From: a virus
Lineage: Duplodnaviria > Heunggongvirae > Uroviricota > Caudoviricetes
Length of the DNA stretch: 28,746 nucleotides
Strand: one strand, 5' to 3'
Virus record (IMG/VR): IMGVR_UViG_2713896907_000002
Coordinates: 1-28,746 of that record
The notes under the pieces were generated by a model. The model was not told the origin of the DNA, did not search any database, and saw nothing but the letters and a program-made list of their open reading frames with translations. This document shows, one piece after another, positions 2,239 to 28,233 of this stretch. A program made the translations under genes and the position numbers. Position 1 is the first letter of the stretch. The number at the start of each line of letters is the position of its first letter.

Positions 2239-3333
2239 ATGTTCATTACTAACACTGATGTTTTTACCTTTCTTTTCTTAGCTATATCATTAATAGCGGC
2301 TATTTTTGTCAAAAAAATAATCCCATCAACCGTAATAAATGTACATAATGACACAACCTTAGAAGGTTTAAGAGGCATTGCATGCTTATTTGTATTTATA
2401 AATCATGCTTCATATAGCATTCATCACATCGGAATACAAAATTGGCAAATGATGGGTGATTCACCATATACCGGGAGAATGGGAGCTTTCGGAGTGGAGA
2501 TATTTTTCTGTTTGACAGGGTACTTGTTTGCAAAAAAGATTCGCAAAGGAGATATAGACTTGTCATTTTTTGAAAAAAGAATCAGGAGGCTTGCTCCTGC
2601 ATATATATTTGTATCATTTGTAGTTTTTATATATTTCGTATTTATGAACTATAATGTTATTCGTGGTTACTACGATATATCGGCTTTGATCCAACAAATT
2701 TTCGGATTCGGTTTCTTTGGGAATAGAATATCTGTAAACGGTATGGTGGATACATCATTGAATGCTGTTGTGTGGACGCTTCCTTATGAATGGAAGTTTT
2801 ATGCAATAGTCCCCTTCGTAGCGGCTATTTATAAGCTAAGAAGGCCAATCCCTCTACTTATCGCATTTGGAGTAGCGACTGTTTGCATTGACTATTGGTC
2901 GAAAATGTTCTTGTGGGGGTTTTTCGTAACCGGATTCATTGCTTCATTCGTTGGTATTTTAGAAAATAGATATCTTAAGTATATCTCATATTACATAATG
3001 CTATTCCTATTTGCATATGCATTTAAGGGATCATTTGATATTCATGGTTTCCAAATGTTTGTCGTAGTATCTTTATTTTTCATAACATTTATTGCGGCAA
3101 GACCTAAGATATTCTCCATAGGAGTATTTGTTTACCTTGGAACTATAAGCTATAGCATTTATCTACTACATCAGGTAGTTACAACGGTTTTCATGAAATT
3201 AATCTCTGGGGTAATCGATCTACTTACCATAAATATGTATGAATACTTAATGGTCTGCATCATACCAATATCACTTACAATTTACTTATCATCTATTAGT
3301 TACAATAAAATAGAGAAAAAATTCATCAGATAA
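2239..3333 (+). CDS. Acyltransferase family 3 membrane protein (OafA/Oac-like O-antigen acetyltransferase), 364 aa
   Basis: ATG start. About ten hydrophobic helices. N-terminal region LEGLRGIACLFVFINHASY resembles the conserved R/H-containing first-helix motif of acyltransferase-3 proteins. Strongly AT-rich compared with its flanks and on the opposite strand to its neighbours. Confidence 0.8.
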   Translation: MFITNTDVFTFLFLAISLIAAIFVKKIIPSTVINVHNDTTLEGLRGIACLFVFINHASYSIHHIGIQNWQMMGDSPYTGRMGAFGVEIFFCLTGYLFAKKIRKGDIDLSFFEKRIRRLAPAYIFVSFVVFIYFVFMNYNVIRGYYDISALIQQIFGFGFFGNRISVNGMVDTSLNAVVWTLPYEWKFYAIVPFVAAIYKLRRPIPLLIAFGVATVCIDYWSKMFLWGFFVTGFIASFVGILENRYLKYISYYIMLFLFAYAFKGSFDIHGFQMFVVVSLFFITFIAARPKIFSIGVFVYLGTISYSIYLLHQVVTTVFMKLISGVIDLLTINMYEYLMVCIIPISLTIYLSSISYNKIEKKFIR

Positions 3334-7292: not shown

Positions 7293-7928
7293 ATGCCACA
7301 ACAACTGCTGAATCCGGCAAAGGTAACTGAGGTTTTCGCTCATCTGAACGAAACTCCAGACAACCGCGCCCTGTATTCAGAGTTAGTGAACGGCAACGAT
7401 GTCACATCTGATGTCAAAGGCGTTTCTCTGGCTCCTGGATACCGCGTTGTCCGTGTAGACGATCGTAAGAAAGGCGAGATTCCACAGGCGCACTTTGAAC
7501 TGTCATTGATAAATGACCTCACCGAAGAGGTAGTGTATTACAATCGTGTCATTATCCAGCCTGACAGCTATCTTAACTGCCGTCCTGTCACGCAGATATT
7601 GGTATGGAGAACCCAGAAGCCTAAGCATCGTGCTGTGCTTCATGATTTCGCCGGCATCATCTTCATGAACTACCTCTTGGAACGGTACGATATCATCGTG
7701 TCTGATCGCAACCAGACTCATGAAGGCATGTCGTTCTGGCAGGCTCGCATGTATGACGCACTGGAACTTGGCCTCCACCTCTATGGTTACGACATGATGA
7801 CATGCGAGCTGATAGAGATGAATAACGAGGAAGAGCTTGAGAAAGGTGAAACCTGGTTGTGGGGTGATGCGGAAAACTTCCAAAACAGATTGGCCATAAT
7901 TTCAAAGCATAAGCTGCCAATAAAATAG
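7293..7928 (+). CDS. Hypothetical protein, 211 aa (orphan accessory gene with its own regulatory unit and terminator)
   Basis: ATG start with GAGGTGA Shine-Dalgarno. Soluble-looking protein with no motif I recognise. Followed directly by a strong intrinsic terminator. Confidence 0.7.
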   Translation: MPQQLLNPAKVTEVFAHLNETPDNRALYSELVNGNDVTSDVKGVSLAPGYRVVRVDDRKKGEIPQAHFELSLINDLTEEVVYYNRVIIQPDSYLNCRPVTQILVWRTQKPKHRAVLHDFAGIIFMNYLLERYDIIVSDRNQTHEGMSFWQARMYDALELGLHLYGYDMMTCELIEMNNEEELEKGETWLWGDAENFQNRLAIISKHKLPIK

Positions 7929-7935
7929 TTCTTTA

Positions 7936-7958
7936 AGCCCGCGCTGCGGGCTTTTTTG
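7936..7958 (+). terminator. Rho-independent terminator
   Basis: AGCCCG-CGCTG-CGGGCT stem-loop followed by TTTTTT (7952-7957), 8 nt after the TAG stop of the 211-aa gene. Confidence 0.65.
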
Positions 7959-8029
7959 TGGACGAAACGAAAGTCAGTGCTACACTCATTGACGCCACAT
8001 TGAGGTGGCTTATAGATGGAAATTTCACA

Positions 8030-8191
8030 ATGAAAAAAGCATTTGCTGCACTGTTCGTTTTGTTGTCTCTGGTAGCTTCAACTCAGGCCTTTGCCGGTCG
8101 TTGTCAGAACGACAGCGATACTGCTGCTGACGGCTCCCGCTGCGGTGGGCGTTCTGCGGATTCCCGCCCGGGTGGCGGTGGCATTCGTTAA
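8030..8191 (+). CDS. Small secreted protein candidate (53 aa with a signal peptide)
   Basis: From the internal ATG: MKKAFAALFVLLSLVASTQAFA then G, a canonical signal peptide with an A-x-A cleavage site, followed by a Gly/Arg/Ser/Asp-rich tail with two Cys. A TTGACG-N16-TATAGA promoter-like element sits just upstream (7989-8016). Weak Shine-Dalgarno. Confidence 0.35.
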   Translation: MKKAFAALFVLLSLVASTQAFAGRCQNDSDTAADGSRCGGRSADSRPGGGGIR

Positions 8192-8212
8192 AAACAAGGC
8201 CGCGAAAGCGGC
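8190..8212 (-). terminator. Terminator candidate for the minus-strand ejection-protein operon
   Basis: Plus strand shows AAAAA (8190-8194), CAAG, then GCCGC-GAAA-GCGGC (8199-8212). On the minus strand this reads hairpin, CUUG, UUUUU. Confidence 0.4.
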
Positions 8213-8214
8213 AT

Positions 8215-8226
8215 GTGACATGTCAC
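8215..8226. promoter_or_regulatory. 12-bp perfect palindrome GTGACATGTCAC (copy 1 of 2)
   Basis: Perfect inverted repeat between the convergent small ORFs. An identical 12-mer occurs at 27613-27624. Confidence 0.35.
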
Positions 8227-8233
8227 GCTCACG

Positions 8234-8374
8234 TTATGACAAGCCTATGTACCCTGCTACACCAGATAATATCAAAACAACTGCAACAGCAAATTCACCA
8301 TCACCAATGATACATTTACGGTTCATAACGCCAAGTGCAACAAGCGCAAACACAACAAGAATAAAAGCAATCAT
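8234..8374 (-). CDS. Small hydrophobic membrane peptide candidate, 46 aa, last gene of the ejection-protein operon
   Basis: Not in the ORF track (below 60 aa). ATG at 8372-8374 is preceded by AAGGA with a 6-nt spacer, directly after the TAA stop of the 824-aa gene. Sequence MIAFILVVFALVALGVMNRKCIIGDGEFAVAVVLILSGVAGYIGLS predicts two transmembrane helices. Confidence 0.4.
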   Translation of the reverse strand: MIAFILVVFALVALGVMNRKCIIGDGEFAVAVVLILSGVAGYIGLS

Positions 8375-8383
8375 TTCTCATCC

Positions 8384-10858
8384 TTATTGCGGAGTGACAT
8401 CCTGAGGTCGCCACCAGTATGTCTGGTTAAACTCTTTCTTCGAACGTTGCTCCATTTTACGCAAATAGCCTGGTGAAAAATACTCCTGCATCTGGTTAAA
8501 GATCATGTGATCGAGAGCCGCCTTCAAGTACCAGAGATTCGCACCTGGCATCAGCCCCTTCCCCAGCTTAACCAGATCACCACCAGTCTGCTCGTTCTTC
8601 CCTTCCACAGCATTTAGAGGTATGCCCTGAGCTATCTTCACTACGTCATCAACCAGACCAGCTACCGGGCCAAGCATCGACGCCAGCGCGCCACTCCCGT
8701 ACCTAGTGTGGTCAGAGAAAAGAAAATCACCGTACAACCCAGCCCCACCACCTTTTAAAAATGCATTTATCCAGAATTTAACCATGTGGTCACCGGTCAT
8801 TTCCTTTGGATTTCTCCCATTAATAAGATCAGTAATCTGCATGGAAAGAGCACCAAGCATGGTTGTGCTTGCTAAAAACGTTGCTATATATGCTGCACGC
8901 CCACCAGCAGACGGCATACCCATAGCGCGTGACCAGTGACGCATAACAACCGAGATAGGGAACGATTTAAACAGGAAAACACTTCTCGTTAATTCACCTT
9001 TCCATGTTCCACGCTGAAGACCAGACCCTACGAACATCTGTTCACGTGCGCCCGGTGTAATAACAGCCATATCAACTTCTTCAGTTACAGCACCGAGCAG
9101 TTTACGCATTGCCTCAAATTTCACGCGTTCAGGCTCACCAAGATGTTTAACTGCTGAATCAGGGATACGCATAATGCTTTCCGGTGTCAGCATCGTATTA
9201 TTACCGTTCCCCCAGTCCTCCTGTTGCGCCAGCTTCCATACGCTCCAGTCTGTGTCAGTAATCCCTTTGCTTTTCAGGATACGAAAATCAGAGTCATCGA
9301 GGCTATGAAGGTCTGGTGTCCGTGACACTACTTCTCCCAGGCTTCCCATCATGGTTACGCCATAGGCGCGCTTGTGCGCATCTGACCATGCTGTAAGCCC
9401 ACTGGCACGCATTACGGCCGTTGCCGCCCAACGAGACACTGACGGCCCCATATTATCCATCGCCCAGCGGTTAACGCTGCCAAGTAGAGATTCCATCGCC
9501 AGACCAGCGCGGCGCGCCCGCGCAAGTTCTGTACGGTTCGTTGGGTCCATAGCTTCAAGCTGGTTGCGGAATAACTGGTTCATTGGAAGGTTGGTAACCT
9601 TCGCAGACAGATACATGGTTCCAAGATCAGAGAACGATGACAGCAACGCTGATCCGAGTCTGCTGGCAACCAGCCAGTTGCGGATATTGTCAGACCATCG
9701 CGCGATGTGCGGATTCGCTACAGGCTGTGTCTTTCCGGAAATAAAGTTGTACAGATTCTCTGTGTTGTTCGCCAGCCGCTCGACTTTACCGGTTTTACTC
9801 GGGTTAGCTGTTGCCGTTTCTGCCTTAACCTGATCAAGAAGGGAGCGGAAAACATGATCGGGGTTTGGGCCATATGTTTCCACCAGTGCAATATCTTTAC
9901 TGATACCTTCCAGGTGACCGACCATGATTTCCCATAGAGAGCGATCGCCATAAAGTTGCTGATATTGCAGATAGGAATCTGCATCTTTGAAATGTATCTG
10001 TCGTGATGCATTACCACGGTTAGCACGTGCGCCGGAAATTCGCATTCCGGTATCAGTAAGCTTATTCAGCCCACCAGTAGCGATCGTGTTATAAGCCTCT
10101 CCAAGAAATGCAGACAACTCGGCATCGTTCATCAGTTGTCCATCGGCTCGGGTATAATATTTGCGATCCAGCTTACCTATAACATCGCTAACCCATTTAT
10201 CTTTTGATACCGCCCCAACCTTTTCCATAGAATGATGTTGAGGGATTCCCCAGTTTTCGAGATAGCCAATGTCCCCACCAGCATCATTAAACCGGCGGCG
10301 GAGTAGATCTGTCACTTCTCTCCACGCCTTAGCACCTTTTCTTGCTTTAGCATTGCCAGTATTTTGCCCTCGCATTTCATATACCAGGTCACGCACGCCC
10401 GCTTCATCTTCAAACAGGCCAAAAAAGCGAGGATCAACTGCTTCGAATGCCTCCTGCAATTGACTCAATGCATAATCACGAGTGGCTTTTGTTCTGGACT
10501 CAACAGAGAGGAAATTCGATTTACCGTCTGCATTAAAAGCAATAGTACGGTTAAGAGCGCCAAGTTTCCCATCAGCCCCTTGATAGCTATTGATAAATTT
10601 ATCCAATCTCTGACGTGCGGCTATAGTGAGAGCCACACGACGTTTCTTTAATGCCGCTTCTCGCTGTAATTCTTCAGATGCCAATTGTGCTGCACGATAT
10701 AGCCGCTCTGATTCGGAAAGTTGTCTCCACGACATCGGGTCATTACGAGCAATGGAGCGCATATTTCGATAAATGCGGTCTTCAATGTTCTGTATTTCTC
10801 GCGCCGTTAACGTGCGCTGCGCCGCCTGCTGGACCGCTTGTATACATTCCTGTCTCAT
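8384..10858 (-). CDS. Large internal virion / ejection protein candidate, 824 aa
   Basis: ATG start. Third of three consecutive large proteins downstream of the tail tubular genes, the same position and size class as T7 gp15/gp16-type core proteins. Translationally contiguous with neighbours. Confidence 0.55.
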   Translation of the reverse strand: MRQECIQAVQQAAQRTLTAREIQNIEDRIYRNMRSIARNDPMSWRQLSESERLYRAAQLASEELQREAALKKRRVALTIAARQRLDKFINSYQGADGKLGALNRTIAFNADGKSNFLSVESRTKATRDYALSQLQEAFEAVDPRFFGLFEDEAGVRDLVYEMRGQNTGNAKARKGAKAWREVTDLLRRRFNDAGGDIGYLENWGIPQHHSMEKVGAVSKDKWVSDVIGKLDRKYYTRADGQLMNDAELSAFLGEAYNTIATGGLNKLTDTGMRISGARANRGNASRQIHFKDADSYLQYQQLYGDRSLWEIMVGHLEGISKDIALVETYGPNPDHVFRSLLDQVKAETATANPSKTGKVERLANNTENLYNFISGKTQPVANPHIARWSDNIRNWLVASRLGSALLSSFSDLGTMYLSAKVTNLPMNQLFRNQLEAMDPTNRTELARARRAGLAMESLLGSVNRWAMDNMGPSVSRWAATAVMRASGLTAWSDAHKRAYGVTMMGSLGEVVSRTPDLHSLDDSDFRILKSKGITDTDWSVWKLAQQEDWGNGNNTMLTPESIMRIPDSAVKHLGEPERVKFEAMRKLLGAVTEEVDMAVITPGAREQMFVGSGLQRGTWKGELTRSVFLFKSFPISVVMRHWSRAMGMPSAGGRAAYIATFLASTTMLGALSMQITDLINGRNPKEMTGDHMVKFWINAFLKGGGAGLYGDFLFSDHTRYGSGALASMLGPVAGLVDDVVKIAQGIPLNAVEGKNEQTGGDLVKLGKGLMPGANLWYLKAALDHMIFNQMQEYFSPGYLRKMEQRSKKEFNQTYWWRPQDVTPQ

Positions 10859-22168: not shown

Positions 22169-22465
22169 TCACTCCTGTTCACTGGCCTCTTTGGCCATCT
22201 TCAAATACTGTTCAGGGCAATGCGCCATAACGCGCTGAAACAGTTCCAGCGCCAGATTGCGTTGCCCCTCATTAAATGCCATTGCCATAGCGTCCATCGG
22301 TGAGATAACGGAAAACACACGGCCTTTCTCCAGCACCGACCAGACAACGCGACGCCCCTGTTCACTGCTCATGACAAAGCGAATGTCATCAATTTCACGC
22401 TGTGCCATGTCACGTTGCTTACGGGCGTTTTCTTCTTTCAGTTGATCGTCTTCGTAATCTGTCAT
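22169..22465 (-). CDS. Hypothetical protein, 98 aa
   Basis: Overlaps the portal gene stop by 4 nt. Charged helical protein of unknown role. Confidence 0.45.
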   Translation of the reverse strand: MTDYEDDQLKEENARKQRDMAQREIDDIRFVMSSEQGRRVVWSVLEKGRVFSVISPMDAMAMAFNEGQRNLALELFQRVMAHCPEQYLKMAKEASEQE

Positions 22466-27519: not shown

Positions 27520-27534
27520 TTACCGTTGTGGTAA
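27520..27534. promoter_or_regulatory. TTACC-N5-GGTAA palindrome (perfect) immediately upstream of the terminase small-subunit start
   Basis: TTACC GTTGT GGTAA, with an extra GGTAA half-site at 27512-27516. Centre is about 25 nt upstream of the ATG at 27502. Confidence 0.45.
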
Positions 27535-27612
27535 TAGTAACATGCAAAATAAAGCCGCCATAGTTGGCGACAGTATTCAAAACCCATCAAATTCATCATG
27601 CATAATCTACTC

Positions 27613-27624
27613 GTGACATGTCAC
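27613..27624. promoter_or_regulatory. 12-bp perfect palindrome GTGACATGTCAC (copy 2 of 2)
   Basis: Identical to the 12-mer at 8215-8226. Overlaps the stop codon of the 112-aa gene, about 110 nt upstream of the terminase small-subunit ATG. Confidence 0.35.
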
Positions 27625-27959
27625 ACTATTAATTTCGTTTCATGCCAGCCTTTAGTCACCCAGCATTGCGAGTCACCATTACACGGGCATGAATTAACTG
27701 GAACTCTCTCGCCGCACTTACCGCAACATTTTCTGCTGATCGATTTTATACGCCCGCGCACGCGTGCATCATCCTGGCGAATCAGTAAAGCTATATACTC
27801 ACCAAATTCGTAAGGCGCACGCCCGGGGCGACGCGTGGCACAGTTACGCTCCAGCATTTCAATTTCCTGAGCATCAAGCACAATTTCCAGCTTACGCACA
27901 CCAGATGCAGCTTGTCTGGCTCTCTGAGCGGCTTTGCGCTCTGCTGCTGATTTAGCCAT
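27621..27959 (-). CDS. Hypothetical protein with C-terminal Cys-rich (putative zinc-binding) region, about 112 aa
   Basis: ATG at 27959 preceded by AGGTGA. Basic N-terminus and a C-terminal CCGKCG...CPCNGDSQC cluster. Confidence 0.5.
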   Translation of the reverse strand: MAKSAAERKAAQRARQAASGVRKLEIVLDAQEIEMLERNCATRRPGRAPYEFGEYIALLIRQDDARVRGRIKSISRKCCGKCGERVPVNSCPCNGDSQCWVTKGWHETKLIV

Positions 27960-28233
27960 CAATATTCACCTTTATCGCGTACACCTTTACCGGTTTATCG
28001 CCGAAGTGCGGATGTGTGATTGTCTTGATTTCATATCCGTCATACGGGACGTCAATTCTGCGGCTGGAATCGTCGCGCTTCGGATATCCCTTTGTGATAA
28101 TCAGGCGGTCATGCTTACGGTTAACGAGGCGCTTTTTCCAGTAGTCATTACACAGGCGATACTCTTCCGTTTTCTCTCCGCGAATCATGGCATCGAAGTA
28201 TTCACCTTTAACGGCAAGTTGCAGGTTAGCCAT
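27952..28233 (-). CDS. ASCH-domain-like protein (about 93 aa from the ATG at 28233)
   Basis: Contains GEKTEEYR, which fits the ASCH GxKxxExR signature. The ATG at 28233 has a strong GGAGGTGA Shine-Dalgarno and TAATG coupling with the upstream gene; the track's longer form starts at 28254. Confidence 0.5.
   Translation of the reverse strand: MANLQLAVKGEYFDAMIRGEKTEEYRLCNDYWKKRLVNRKHDRLIITKGYPKRDDSSRRIDVPYDGYEIKTITHPHFGDKPVKVYAIKVNIDG

Follow-up and report, generated by a model that had tools for sequence, protein, structure and literature searches.

The 3′ end of the late operon in this phiV10/epsilon15-type temperate podovirus is probably a cargo junction, where two independent accessory genes, here called orfS and orfM, encode products that are both bound for the cell envelope. 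Our analysis establishes the gene status of the pair, the anatomy and mobility of the region and the predicted envelope targeting of the products. They lie where the structural operon of a Uetakevirus-type (phiV10/epsilon15-like) E. coli prophage ends. In the window (the whole stretch of 28,746 nucleotides analysed) the locus comprises the following elements.

7935–7959, + strand: Rho-independent terminator of the upstream cargo gene (211-aa ORF, 7293–7928), a stem-loop AAGCCCGCGCTGCGGGCTT with a T-run, found by scan
7959–7986, + strand: candidate sigma-70 promoter of orfS (−35 TGGACG at 7959–7964, 16-nt spacer, −10 TACACT at 7981–7986)
7994–8009, + strand: conserved hairpin in the predicted 5′ leader of orfS (GCCAC / GTGGC, 6-nt loop)
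8030–8191, + strand: orfS, 53-aa precursor MKKAFAALFVLLSLVASTQAFAGRCQNDSDTAADGSRCGGRSADSRPGGGGIR (ORF listing, phrog_14503, dN/dS)
8189–8212, − strand: late (structural) operon terminator, GCCGC-TTTC-GCGGC with a T-run after it
8215–8226, no strand assigned: perfect palindrome of 12 bp, GTGACATGTCAC, separating the orfM stop from the terminator
8234–8374, − strand: orfM, 46 aa MIAFILVVFALVALGVMNRKCIIGDGEFAVAVVLILSGVAGYIGLS (ORF listing, phrog_7892, phiV10p21, dN/dS)
8381–8385, − strand: Shine-Dalgarno sequence AAGGA of orfM, overlapping the TAA stop (8384–8386) of the 824-aa gene
8384–10858, − strand: gene of the 824-aa virion/ejection ("pilot") protein, homologue of epsilon15 gp17 and phiV10 gp20 (phrog_684, E=0)

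The two small genes are convergent and 42 nt apart, with exactly the coordinates and lengths that an earlier note on this DNA had given them.

Coding status of orfS and orfM

Small ORFs are so frequent in this region (27 of at least 20 aa in 1.5 kb) that orfS and orfM by themselves do not go beyond chance, and the evidence that they are genes is comparative. On that evidence both are genuine conserved protein-coding genes under purifying selection. The comparison of synonymous and nonsynonymous changes, which the earlier note had proposed as a check on the frames, gave dN/dS values far below 1 in both. In orfS, where synonymous sites were saturated, the signal peptide had a ratio of 0.19 and the mature part one of 0.075; in orfM the ratio was about 0.17 against about 1.05 in a shifted frame, with variable sites distributed 25/9/40 by codon position.

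Neither gene is new: both are present in databases as phiV10 gp21 and TL-2011b gp43, in phrog_7892 and phrog_14503, and as exact NCBI entries. Over its full length orfS matched the profiles of phrog_14503 (E=4.4e-39, 1–53/53) and phrog_3117 (E=6.3e-35), and its exact sequence is WP_059254487.1. The orthologue in TL-2011b, gp43 (phrog_14503, WP_000708858.1), is 98% identical and named "putative transmembrane anchored protein". The orfM product matched phrog_7892 at E=1.2e-31 over 1–46/46; beyond that family the PHROGs gave just phrog_31821, at E=0.78, whose function is likewise unknown. Its orthologue is phiV10 gp21 (PhiV10p21, YP_512275.1; phrog_7892), also of 46 aa and 93.5% identical, annotated as [quoted passage not shown] and placed in the same way, past the 824-aa gene and ahead of the terminator, with no substantive difference. 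The 46-aa ORF was thus not "missed", as the earlier note had it, having been on record as phiV10p21 for years and being also a RefSeq protein. Sequence searches of Pfam, NCBIfam, PADLOC and PDB returned no meaningful match for either peptide (among the PADLOC defence models none for orfS and a noise-level one, E=0.2, for orfM) or for ten diverse relatives that bear the orfS motif, and a literature search on the accessions, protein name, palindrome and peptide motif found no papers.

The orfS cassette

By its sequence organisation orfS is a self-contained moron, with a predicted promoter, on the strand opposite to the late operon. The lambdoid moron, a concept from the HK97/HK022 comparisons, is a gene with its own promoter and terminator placed between conserved genes. 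Like these, orfS has flanking terminators (7935–7953 upstream and the 8199–8212 hairpin downstream, which lacks a T-run on the + strand), a conserved predicted promoter, an operon-end location and a predicted exported product. Phages that are otherwise near-identical may have it or lack it, the breakpoints falling at the edges of the cassette. It differs in that its leader contains a conserved hairpin and that a conserved palindrome adjoins the cassette. The cassette would be read as terminator, weak sigma-70 promoter, 5′ hairpin leader, gene and terminator, and the small exported moron product proposed earlier for the 53-aa ORF agrees with this terminator-promoter-terminator arrangement of its own.

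The terminator at 7935–7959 is the left edge of the mobile unit, as homology to TL-2011b and to hundreds of E. coli prophages starts exactly there (query positions 35–37). The gene occurs in Uetakevirus, lambdoid-type and other prophage contexts, and the viable phage phiV10 retains just its last 6 codons. TL-2011b shares the whole series of terminator, promoter, gene, terminator and palindrome. However, its gp43 follows a YafO-family toxin gene and converges on an Ant/Arc-like module, whereas orfS of the window follows the 211-aa ORF and converges on the ejection operon.

A consensus promoter scan of the + strand found nothing reaching threshold upstream of orfS. The conserved candidate at 7959–7986 matches the consensus at 8/12 positions, under the scan threshold, and has a weak −35, but in the −10 element (TAnnnT) the T, the A and the final T do not vary among the 12 loci, of 8 genera, in alignment A3. 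It would place the transcription start near 7992–7995. The promoter-like element of the earlier note is thus confirmed in part: the one probably meant there, TTGACG(7989)-17-TATAGA(8012), lacks the final T and is not conserved in relatives, and the conserved element is a different one. In the leader hairpin 88% of cells are paired, against 23–38% for slid pairing, compensatory double changes occur in 3/5 pairs, and the covariation score is above all 500 shuffles.

The terminator that had been noted downstream of the 46-aa ORF was recovered by the scan as a − strand stem, 8212–8199, followed by CTTGTTTTTA. It is kept across loci with compensatory loop and stem variants, and the same 8199–8212 hairpin lies 3′ of orfS on the + strand, there without a T-run.

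The boundary palindrome and the mature orfS motif

Every related locus examined has kept the palindrome, even those of epsilon15 and of Klebsiella phages, where the flanking genes differ. The window holds a second exact copy at 27613–27624 and encodes a 113-aa regulator at 27621–27962, epsilon15 has three exact copies, each adjoining a terminator, and in 71/80 loci the palindrome lies 22–25 nt past the orfS stop. Because RNA folding in five contexts gave no consistent hairpin at this sequence, we prefer to read it as a DNA site, and an RNA-level (nut/put-like) reading was dropped. It could be a boundary element that delimits the orfM slot, either controlling termination and read-through or acting as a hotspot of cargo exchange.

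A profile search found the motif of mature orfS, C-x12-C-G-x-R-[AS]-A-x2-R-P-G-G, in 471 representative protein clusters. Across Proteobacteria it is found alone, on the N-terminal side of TM proteins, or on the C-terminal side of lipoproteins and TM proteins, the copies being preceded by signal peptides or TM segments. The motif itself had no match in Pfam, NCBIfam or PDB, and orfS and 10 diverse proteins that bear the motif had no Pfam match at E<=1; one relative also carries a bacterial SH3 domain of the cell-wall-binding type. The presence of the motif in chromosomal, non-phage proteins suggests that its biochemical role is general and not necessarily anti-phage. The genomic context of the alphaproteobacterial motif proteins (Mesorhizobium lipoproteins and others) showed no recurring partner gene. 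In orfS itself C25, D30, A32, G35, S36, R37, C38, G40, R41, S42, S45, R46 and G49 are invariant, and at position 27, a nearly invariant His in the family, the window copy carries Asn.

It is possible, though we propose it tentatively, that the mature orfS peptide is a widespread, uncurated periplasmic mini-domain and that GTGACATGTCAC is a protein-binding boundary element. The mini-domain would be about 27 residues long (G-N-C-x3-x-D-x-A-x-D-G-S-R-C-G-x-R-[AS]-A-x2-R-P-G-G); in phages it would be a captured module, secreted on its own as an effector and binding some conserved target in the envelope.

The Excalibur extracellular Ca-binding domain (PF05901) has the motif DxDxDGxxCE. Mature orfS resembles it as a short extracytoplasmic Cys-bounded module with D-x-A-x-D-G-S-R-C-G, but the middle Asp is Ala in 91% of 145 copies of the orfS motif. 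With Ala at position 3 and no Pfam match, orfS was not accepted as an Excalibur/EF-hand-like Ca-binding loop.

Export of the orfS product

The textbook signal peptide that the earlier note saw in the 53-aa ORF has all the rule-based features: the n-region MKK, a 13-residue hydrophobic core AFAALFVLLSLVA and A-F-A before G23. It corresponds to codons 1–22 (8030–8095) and leaves a mature peptide of 31 aa (8096–8188) that contains Cys25 and Cys38. The positive n-region, the h-region of at least 10 residues and the small residues at −3/−1 (alignment A1) are those of a Sec/signal peptidase I substrate. The precursor would be exported by Sec and cut by signal peptidase I after Ala22, the Cys25-Cys38 loop would be oxidised, and the peptide left free in the periplasm would weigh about 3 kDa, with about 3,035 Da expected for the oxidised form that starts at G23.

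Alternatively the peptide might not be released at all, the N-terminal hydrophobic segment being an uncleaved signal anchor that tethers the motif to the inner membrane. The NCBI and PHROG names ("transmembrane anchored protein") say as much, and in many longer relatives a lipoprotein anchor or a true TM segment tethers the same motif. Nevertheless, A-x-A or V/S-x-A followed by Gly is kept family-wide while the remaining leader varies freely, the core of about 13 residues is typical for cleaved Sec signals, and dN/dS falls from the leader to the mature part. We consider this alternative unlikely.

Two other ideas about the precursor were rejected. Processing as a lipoprotein by signal peptidase II fails because orfS lacks a lipobox [LVI][ASTVI][GAS]C, Cys25 being preceded by G-R (G-N in relatives). 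An arbitrium-like communication peptide is ruled out by the near-invariance of the mature sequence across unrelated phages and chromosomal proteins, which is the opposite of a diversifying signal code.

We infer that the free peptide binds a conserved periplasmic target. AlphaFold2 modelled the mature part poorly (pLDDT only 45–60), which leaves no structural clue in favour of any particular target.

The orfM slot

The description of orfM as a two-helix membrane peptide of 46 aa agrees with the AF2 prediction, a hairpin with pLDDT 92 in which helices 2–19 and 25–43 are joined by the turn K-C-I-I-G. Its GRAVY is 1.84. A BFVD fold search with this hairpin returned its own orthologue plus non-significant helical hairpins. 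The good Shine-Dalgarno sequence claimed at the stop of the 824-aa gene is also there: AAGGA overlaps the TAA and lies 6 nt ahead of the ATG. This stop-SD-ATG junction is kept in 50/50 IMG/VR loci despite base differences (e.g. in loci L136 and L137). No sigma-70-like site of at least 8/12 was found in the 200 nt upstream of orfM, which is the 3′ end of the 824-aa gene, where a weak embedded promoter is possible. As the last cistron of the late operon, with its ribosome-binding site on the ejection-gene stop, orfM would be made late by coupled translation, and its product would enter the inner membrane as a helical hairpin of 46 residues.

Of the conserved genes in the late operon the 824-aa gene comes last. 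By tblastn it is 97% identical to that of phiV10 and 27.5% to epsilon15 gp17, and the Piluca homologue of the protein is annotated as "pilot protein". Synonymous, or third-position, variation is lowered in its last ~135 nt.

Between the stop of this gene on one side and the palindrome with the terminator on the other lies a slot whose content varies. Among 80 prophage loci seeded with orfS, the 824-aa gene was found in 48 and orfM in two, and most prophages whose 824-aa gene is more than 60%, mostly more than 95%, identical lack orfM. The slot is filled elsewhere by 137-/138-aa lipoproteins, a 98-aa 3-TM protein, 186-/283-aa secreted proteins or a 152-aa protein, and in epsilon15, Klebsiella and Buttiauxella relatives by non-homologous small multi-TM proteins. 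Base composition is 38% GC (GC3 26%) in orfM and 49% GC (GC3 45%) in the 824-aa gene. Such a hypervariable slot, with unrelated proteins beside near-identical ejection genes, suggests that orfM is cargo and not ejection machinery.

The earlier note had taken orfM for a possible small membrane component of the ejection machinery, and this suggestion is not supported, given the absence of the gene from most prophages with a near-identical 824-aa gene and its foreign GC3. In a fuller form, orfM would be a dedicated small ejection component or an assembly/insertion helper, serving virion function or a trans-envelope channel. It is indeed the last cistron of a block of three large ejection proteins, joined to it by the stop/SD overlap, the terminator appears only past it, and the synonymous dip at the end of the 824-aa gene hints at a functional junction. 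In epsilon15 the same position is held by gp18 (NP_848226.1, phrog_29212), a two-TM protein of 64 aa whose gene overlaps the gp17 stop and is followed by the GTGACATGTCAC palindrome and a terminator, as orfM is. However, gp18 belongs to another PHROG family and has no detectable homology to orfM (hhalign probability 0.5%), unrelated lipoproteins and secreted proteins replace orfM next to near-identical 824-aa genes, the position is without a small ORF in Piluca, BcepC6B and an Acinetobacter-labelled contig, and the base composition is foreign. A dedicated ejection role thus seems distinctly unlikely, and we retain the view of orfM as cargo.

Possible functions

Our best guess is that orfS and orfM are envelope-level accessory genes of the lysogenic-conversion or superinfection-exclusion type, although neither matched a PHROG family with known exclusion function. 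A positional parallel for orfM exists in P22, where SieA, an inner-membrane exclusion protein, is encoded in the interval that separates the last ejection gene from the tailspike gene, stops DNA injection, and is escaped by mutations in ejection proteins (PMC10883804). The orfM product is likewise a predicted inner-membrane protein at the equivalent position. In contrast to orfM, with its 46 aa, two helices and no detectable promoter of its own, SieA has 162–164 aa and 3 TM and is expressed from the prophage, and searches of PHROG, Pfam and NCBIfam showed no sequence similarity of orfM to SieA-type exclusion proteins. Since no lysogenic promoter was detected for orfM, a SieA-like prophage role would need an unseen promoter, or the role would fall late in infection.

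As annotated hypothetical genes, orfS and orfM add little. The corrected picture is that the late-operon end of Uetakevirus is a point of cargo exchange with a preference for envelope-directed proteins, which makes it a sensible place to search for superinfection-exclusion and lysogenic-conversion functions; such functions would concern prophages of pathogenic E. coli, Salmonella and Klebsiella. Two by-products could outweigh the ORFs in importance: a highly conserved Cys-loop periplasmic motif that has no curated family or structure, and a conserved palindrome of 12 bp, found at the boundaries of operons, with a possible role in the control of termination or of mosaic recombination.

More specific functions are harder to defend. 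T4 Sp acts on gp5, and Ivy, whose active loop is Cys-bounded and contains H, acts on lysozymes. By analogy the orfS peptide might be a periplasmic inhibitor of peptidoglycan hydrolases, directed against the lytic transglycosylase domain of an incoming ejection protein or against lysozymes. Its predicted disulfide-bounded loop begins with C-Q-H-D in the enterobacterial subfamily, the ejection operons beside which orfS recurs have a gp15 homologue with an annotated lytic transglycosylase fold, and the SH3-bearing relative joins the motif to a bacterial cell-wall domain. Yet the His is not kept in the wider family (Y, C or H) and is Asn in the window copy, such ejection genes are missing from the lambdoid and other contexts in which orfS also occurs, and orfS has no sequence or profile match to the Ivy, MliC and PliC families. 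We regard an inhibitor of this kind as very improbable.

An equally slight chance attaches to orfM as a factor of lysis timing or membrane depolarisation, that is, as a small hydrophobic peptide of late synthesis, either toxic or similar to a holin/antiholin. Its late position, its hydrophobicity and a two-helix hairpin that resembles class II holins speak for it. On the other hand, the lysis cassette of phiV10/epsilon15 is complete elsewhere (membrane protein, holin, endolysin, Rz/Rz1), so that orfM lies outside it, no holin family was matched in Pfam, PHROGs or NCBIfam, and other phages put non-membrane cargo in the same slot.

The idea that one or both ORFs are chance open frames within intergenic DNA, suggested by the abundance of short ORFs nearby and by the lack of a Pfam or NCBIfam family for both, is already effectively refuted by the comparative data, in which strong purifying selection is confined to the named frames, start, SD and stop are kept across genera, and frameshifted copies are few and rare (loci L142 and L126–L130).

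Two small genes at the end of the structural operon

The prophage is of the phiV10/epsilon15 type (genus Uetakevirus); the minus strand carries its structural operon. The two small ORFs, here called orfS and orfM, lie exactly where the earlier note had placed them; they are convergent, and their stop codons are 42 nt apart.

8030-8191, plus: orfS, 53 aa
8234-8374, minus: orfM, 46 aa
8381-8385, minus: orfM ribosome-binding site AAGGA, overlapping the TAA stop (8384-8386) of the 824-aa gene, 6 nt 5' of the ATG
8212-8199, minus: GC hairpin and T-run 3' of orfM (terminator scan)
8215-8226: perfect 12-bp palindrome GTGACATGTCAC, between the orfM stop and the terminator

The Shine-Dalgarno sequence at the stop of the 824-aa ejection protein gene and the terminator downstream of orfM are thus present as described. 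The observation is confirmed, and its interpretation proved partly right. ORFs of such length are common by chance here (a 1.5-kb stretch contains or overlaps 27 that reach 20 aa or more), so the evidence for genes rests on comparison with relatives.

As genes, both are ordinary and already catalogued. RefSeq entries from E. coli genomes exist for both (WP_000708858.1, WP_000559990.1). orfM is phiV10p21, annotated as a putative integral membrane protein with two predicted transmembrane helices (phrog_7892, unknown function), and its exact sequence occurs in 226 NCBI contigs. orfS is gp43 of TL-2011b, annotated as a putative transmembrane anchored protein; its PHROGs family (phrog_14503) is named membrane associated protein, in the moron category, and its exact sequence is WP_059254487.1. 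Pfam and NCBIfam searches returned no family for either ORF, and our literature search found no paper mentioning them.

Both reading frames are kept in relatives, with dN/dS well below 1. A Nei-Gojobori comparison of 26 distinct nucleotide versions of orfM from IMG/VR prophages gave a median dN/dS of 0.17 where pairwise dS exceeded 0.2; in a shifted frame the ratio was about 1.05, and the variable sites split 25/9/40 over the three codon positions. In the IMG/VR loci the stop-SD-ATG junction is retained even where the bases differ, and frameshifts occur in a few copies (L142, L126-L130). For orfS, compared across 15 enterobacterial loci of eight genera, synonymous sites are nearly saturated; dN/dS came to 0.075 for the mature part and 0.19 for the signal peptide. 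The nucleotide comparisons indicate purifying selection on both genes.

orfM occupies a cargo slot

AlphaFold2 predicts a confident helical hairpin for orfM (pLDDT 92; helices 2-19 and 25-43; GRAVY 1.84), in agreement with the two-helix peptide of the earlier note. The further suggestion there, that orfM may be a part of the ejection machinery, is weakened by its distribution and composition, which speak against a core role. Among 80 prophage loci collected with orfS, the 824-aa gene is present in 48 and orfM in only two. In other such loci the slot between the 824-aa stop and the palindrome or terminator is filled by unrelated genes:

lipoproteins, 137 and 138 aa
three-TM protein, 98 aa
signal-peptide (secreted) proteins, 186 and 283 aa
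soluble protein, 152 aa

In more distant relatives this position holds small membrane proteins that are not homologous, or nothing: epsilon15 gp18 (64 aa, two TM; hhalign probability 0.5% against orfM), 57-aa and 98-aa proteins in Klebsiella phages, a 91-aa protein in Buttiauxella, and no gene in Piluca and BcepC6B. Finally, orfM is compositionally foreign, with 38% GC and 26% GC3 against 49% and 45% in the 824-aa gene.

Scanning, which included the 3' end of the 824-aa gene, found no promoter for orfM, so the simplest reading is a late cistron translated by coupling. The slot (8375-8233) is hypervariable among otherwise similar prophages (loci L013-L092, 150-1150 nt beyond orfS). Third-codon-position entropy falls to 0.15-0.59 at the end of the 824-aa gene (final ~135 nt; 8387-8520, minus), against 0.7-0.9 upstream (34 distinct sequences). 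No sigma-70-like promoter was found that would explain the fall; an embedded signal or a tract of recent recombination might account for it.

orfS is a mobile cassette

The orfS gene, together with its flanking signals, forms a cassette:

7935-7953, plus: upstream terminator, left edge of homology with other prophages
7981-7986, plus: candidate -10 TACACT; T, A and final T invariant in 12 loci
16 nt upstream of the -10, plus: weak candidate -35 TGGACG (window sequence)
7994-7998 paired with 8005-8009, plus: 5-bp leader hairpin at the predicted transcript 5' end

Prophage homology begins exactly at the upstream terminator, whichever gene precedes it: a 211-aa ORF in the window, a YafO-family toxin in TL-2011b, a DUF2335 protein in Klebsiella. 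The 211-aa ORF (7293-7928, plus; phrog_1349, unknown function, no Pfam match) fills the cargo position upstream of orfS. Leader pairing is kept at 88%, against 23-38% after sliding, with double-sided changes in three of the five pairs. TTGACG-17-TATAGA, probably the promoter-like element meant in the earlier note, is not conserved in relatives.

The signal peptide claimed for orfS is borne out by rule-based prediction: it is of the cleavable type, with MKK, a 13-residue core and A-F-A before G23, and inspection of the sequence revealed no lipobox. In the alignment the leader peptide is freely variable and the mature peptide almost invariant (C25, D30, A32, G35-S36-R37-C38, G40-R41-S42, S45-R46 and G49 are fixed). 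By prediction the product is a basic ~3.0-kDa peptide with one putative disulfide; AlphaFold2 could not model the mature form (pLDDT 45-60). At codon 27 (8108-8110) the window has Asn where the enterobacterial family has near-invariant His (CQND versus CQHD), and this exact variant is rare (four contigs, the name coming also from Escherichia albertii).

orfS is mobile and dispensable. It lies convergent to an epsilon15-gp17-type pilot gene in the window, in Klebsiella phages, a Buttiauxella prophage, Alcaligenes phage Piluca and an "Acinetobacter phage" contig; elsewhere its neighbors are lysis/terminase genes in lambdoid-type prophages or a cI-like repressor, and it also occurs where other podovirus structural operons end. 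In phiV10 only the last six codons remain (GGGGIR*), fused to the 3' end of the Bro-N/Ant(irepressor) gene region (L002; 19523-19550 of L165, the phiV10 locus), and the same scar occurs in ten IMG/VR loci collected with orfM (L100, L114 and others). The annotated 29-aa phiV10p22, which overlaps the scar junction, is probably not a gene.

Possible function

On balance we favor, with some reserve, the view that both are real accessory envelope cargo rather than ejection machinery; we are more confident of the structural part of this picture taken alone. Gene status, the make-up of the cassette, the coupling junction, mobility and dispensability rest on what was observed, export and membrane insertion on prediction. 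Both the slot and the moron would deliver envelope proteins. A role in exclusion or conversion is our best guess for each gene, a tentative and rather doubtful one drawn by analogy, mainly with SieA of P22 and secondarily with lambdoid morons. SieA, a protein of the inner membrane, is encoded between the genes for ejection proteins and for the tailspike; it stops DNA from being injected, and the mutations that allow escape map to ejection proteins (PMC10883804). Separately, in the window a 364-aa ORF with an Acyl_transf_3 domain (2239-3333, plus) adjoins the tailspike gene, at the position of the phiV10 O-antigen acetyltransferase (oac).

The orfS motif in other proteins

Searching 1.84 billion representative proteins with a profile gave 471 clusters at E<=1e-3. 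Among the best 147 hits, 35 are short secreted proteins, 33 carry the motif N-terminal to more sequence (often a TM segment and cytoplasmic domain), 45 carry it C-terminally behind a TM segment or lipoprotein anchor, and 15 in mid-protein. Over 145 copies the consensus reads G-N-C-x-[YCH]-P-x-D-x-A-x-D-G-S-R-C-G-x-R-[AS]-A-x-x-R-P-G-G. Among the hosts are Enterobacterales, Tolumonas, Mesorhizobium, Methylobacterium and an acidobacterial MAG. None of ten diverse carriers matched a Pfam or NCBIfam family across the motif, and the profile matched no PDB chain. Judged from these matches, the Cys-loop motif is widespread and uncurated, and it offers a modest lead.

The boundary palindrome

The palindrome does not vary among the related loci examined, epsilon15 and Klebsiella phages with different neighbor genes among them; about 0.002 exact copies of the 12-mer are expected by chance per 28.7 kb. 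Further copies lie in the window:

27613-27624: second exact copy, overlapping the stop codon of the gene for a 113-aa Cys-rich regulator (phrog_536), shortly ahead of a terminator and the small-terminase gene
22402-22413: copy with one mismatch

Epsilon15 (L164) has three exact copies (2142, 19517, 39612), each beside a terminator at a transcription-unit end, and phiV10 has two (2262, 19493) plus a one-mismatch copy across the record ends. In Uetakevirus genomes the palindrome always adjoins a terminator hairpin at a transcription-unit end, and twice it overlaps a TGA stop. It lies 22-25 nt past the orfS stop in 71 of the 80 loci, TL-2011b included, and a mosaic breakpoint falls inside it in eight loci. 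It is absent from the loci of the more distant gp17-bearing phages Piluca, BcepC6B, Shamal and YeP4, is unannotated in the epsilon15 and phiV10 records, and was not found in the literature searched.

Folding of the RNA yielded no consistent hairpin, which makes a DNA target of a dimeric protein the likelier reading, and this boundary element too is a modest lead. The 113-aa regulator (27621-27962, minus), a homologue of epsilon15 gp49 and phiV10 gp55, may be a late regulator and a candidate binder. It is annotated as a transcriptional regulator, has a Cys-rich C-terminus (CCGKCG...CPCNGDSQC), and has a Q-like position, closing the early-right genes shortly ahead of a terminator and the terminase genes. 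The terminase ORF called from TTG (27580) would include the terminator, so the true start probably lies downstream. Just upstream of the small-terminase start, ATTACCACAACGGTAA (27520-27535, minus) agrees in 15 of its 16 positions with a site of the epsilon15 record (12-27) that is annotated "repressor, lysogeny".
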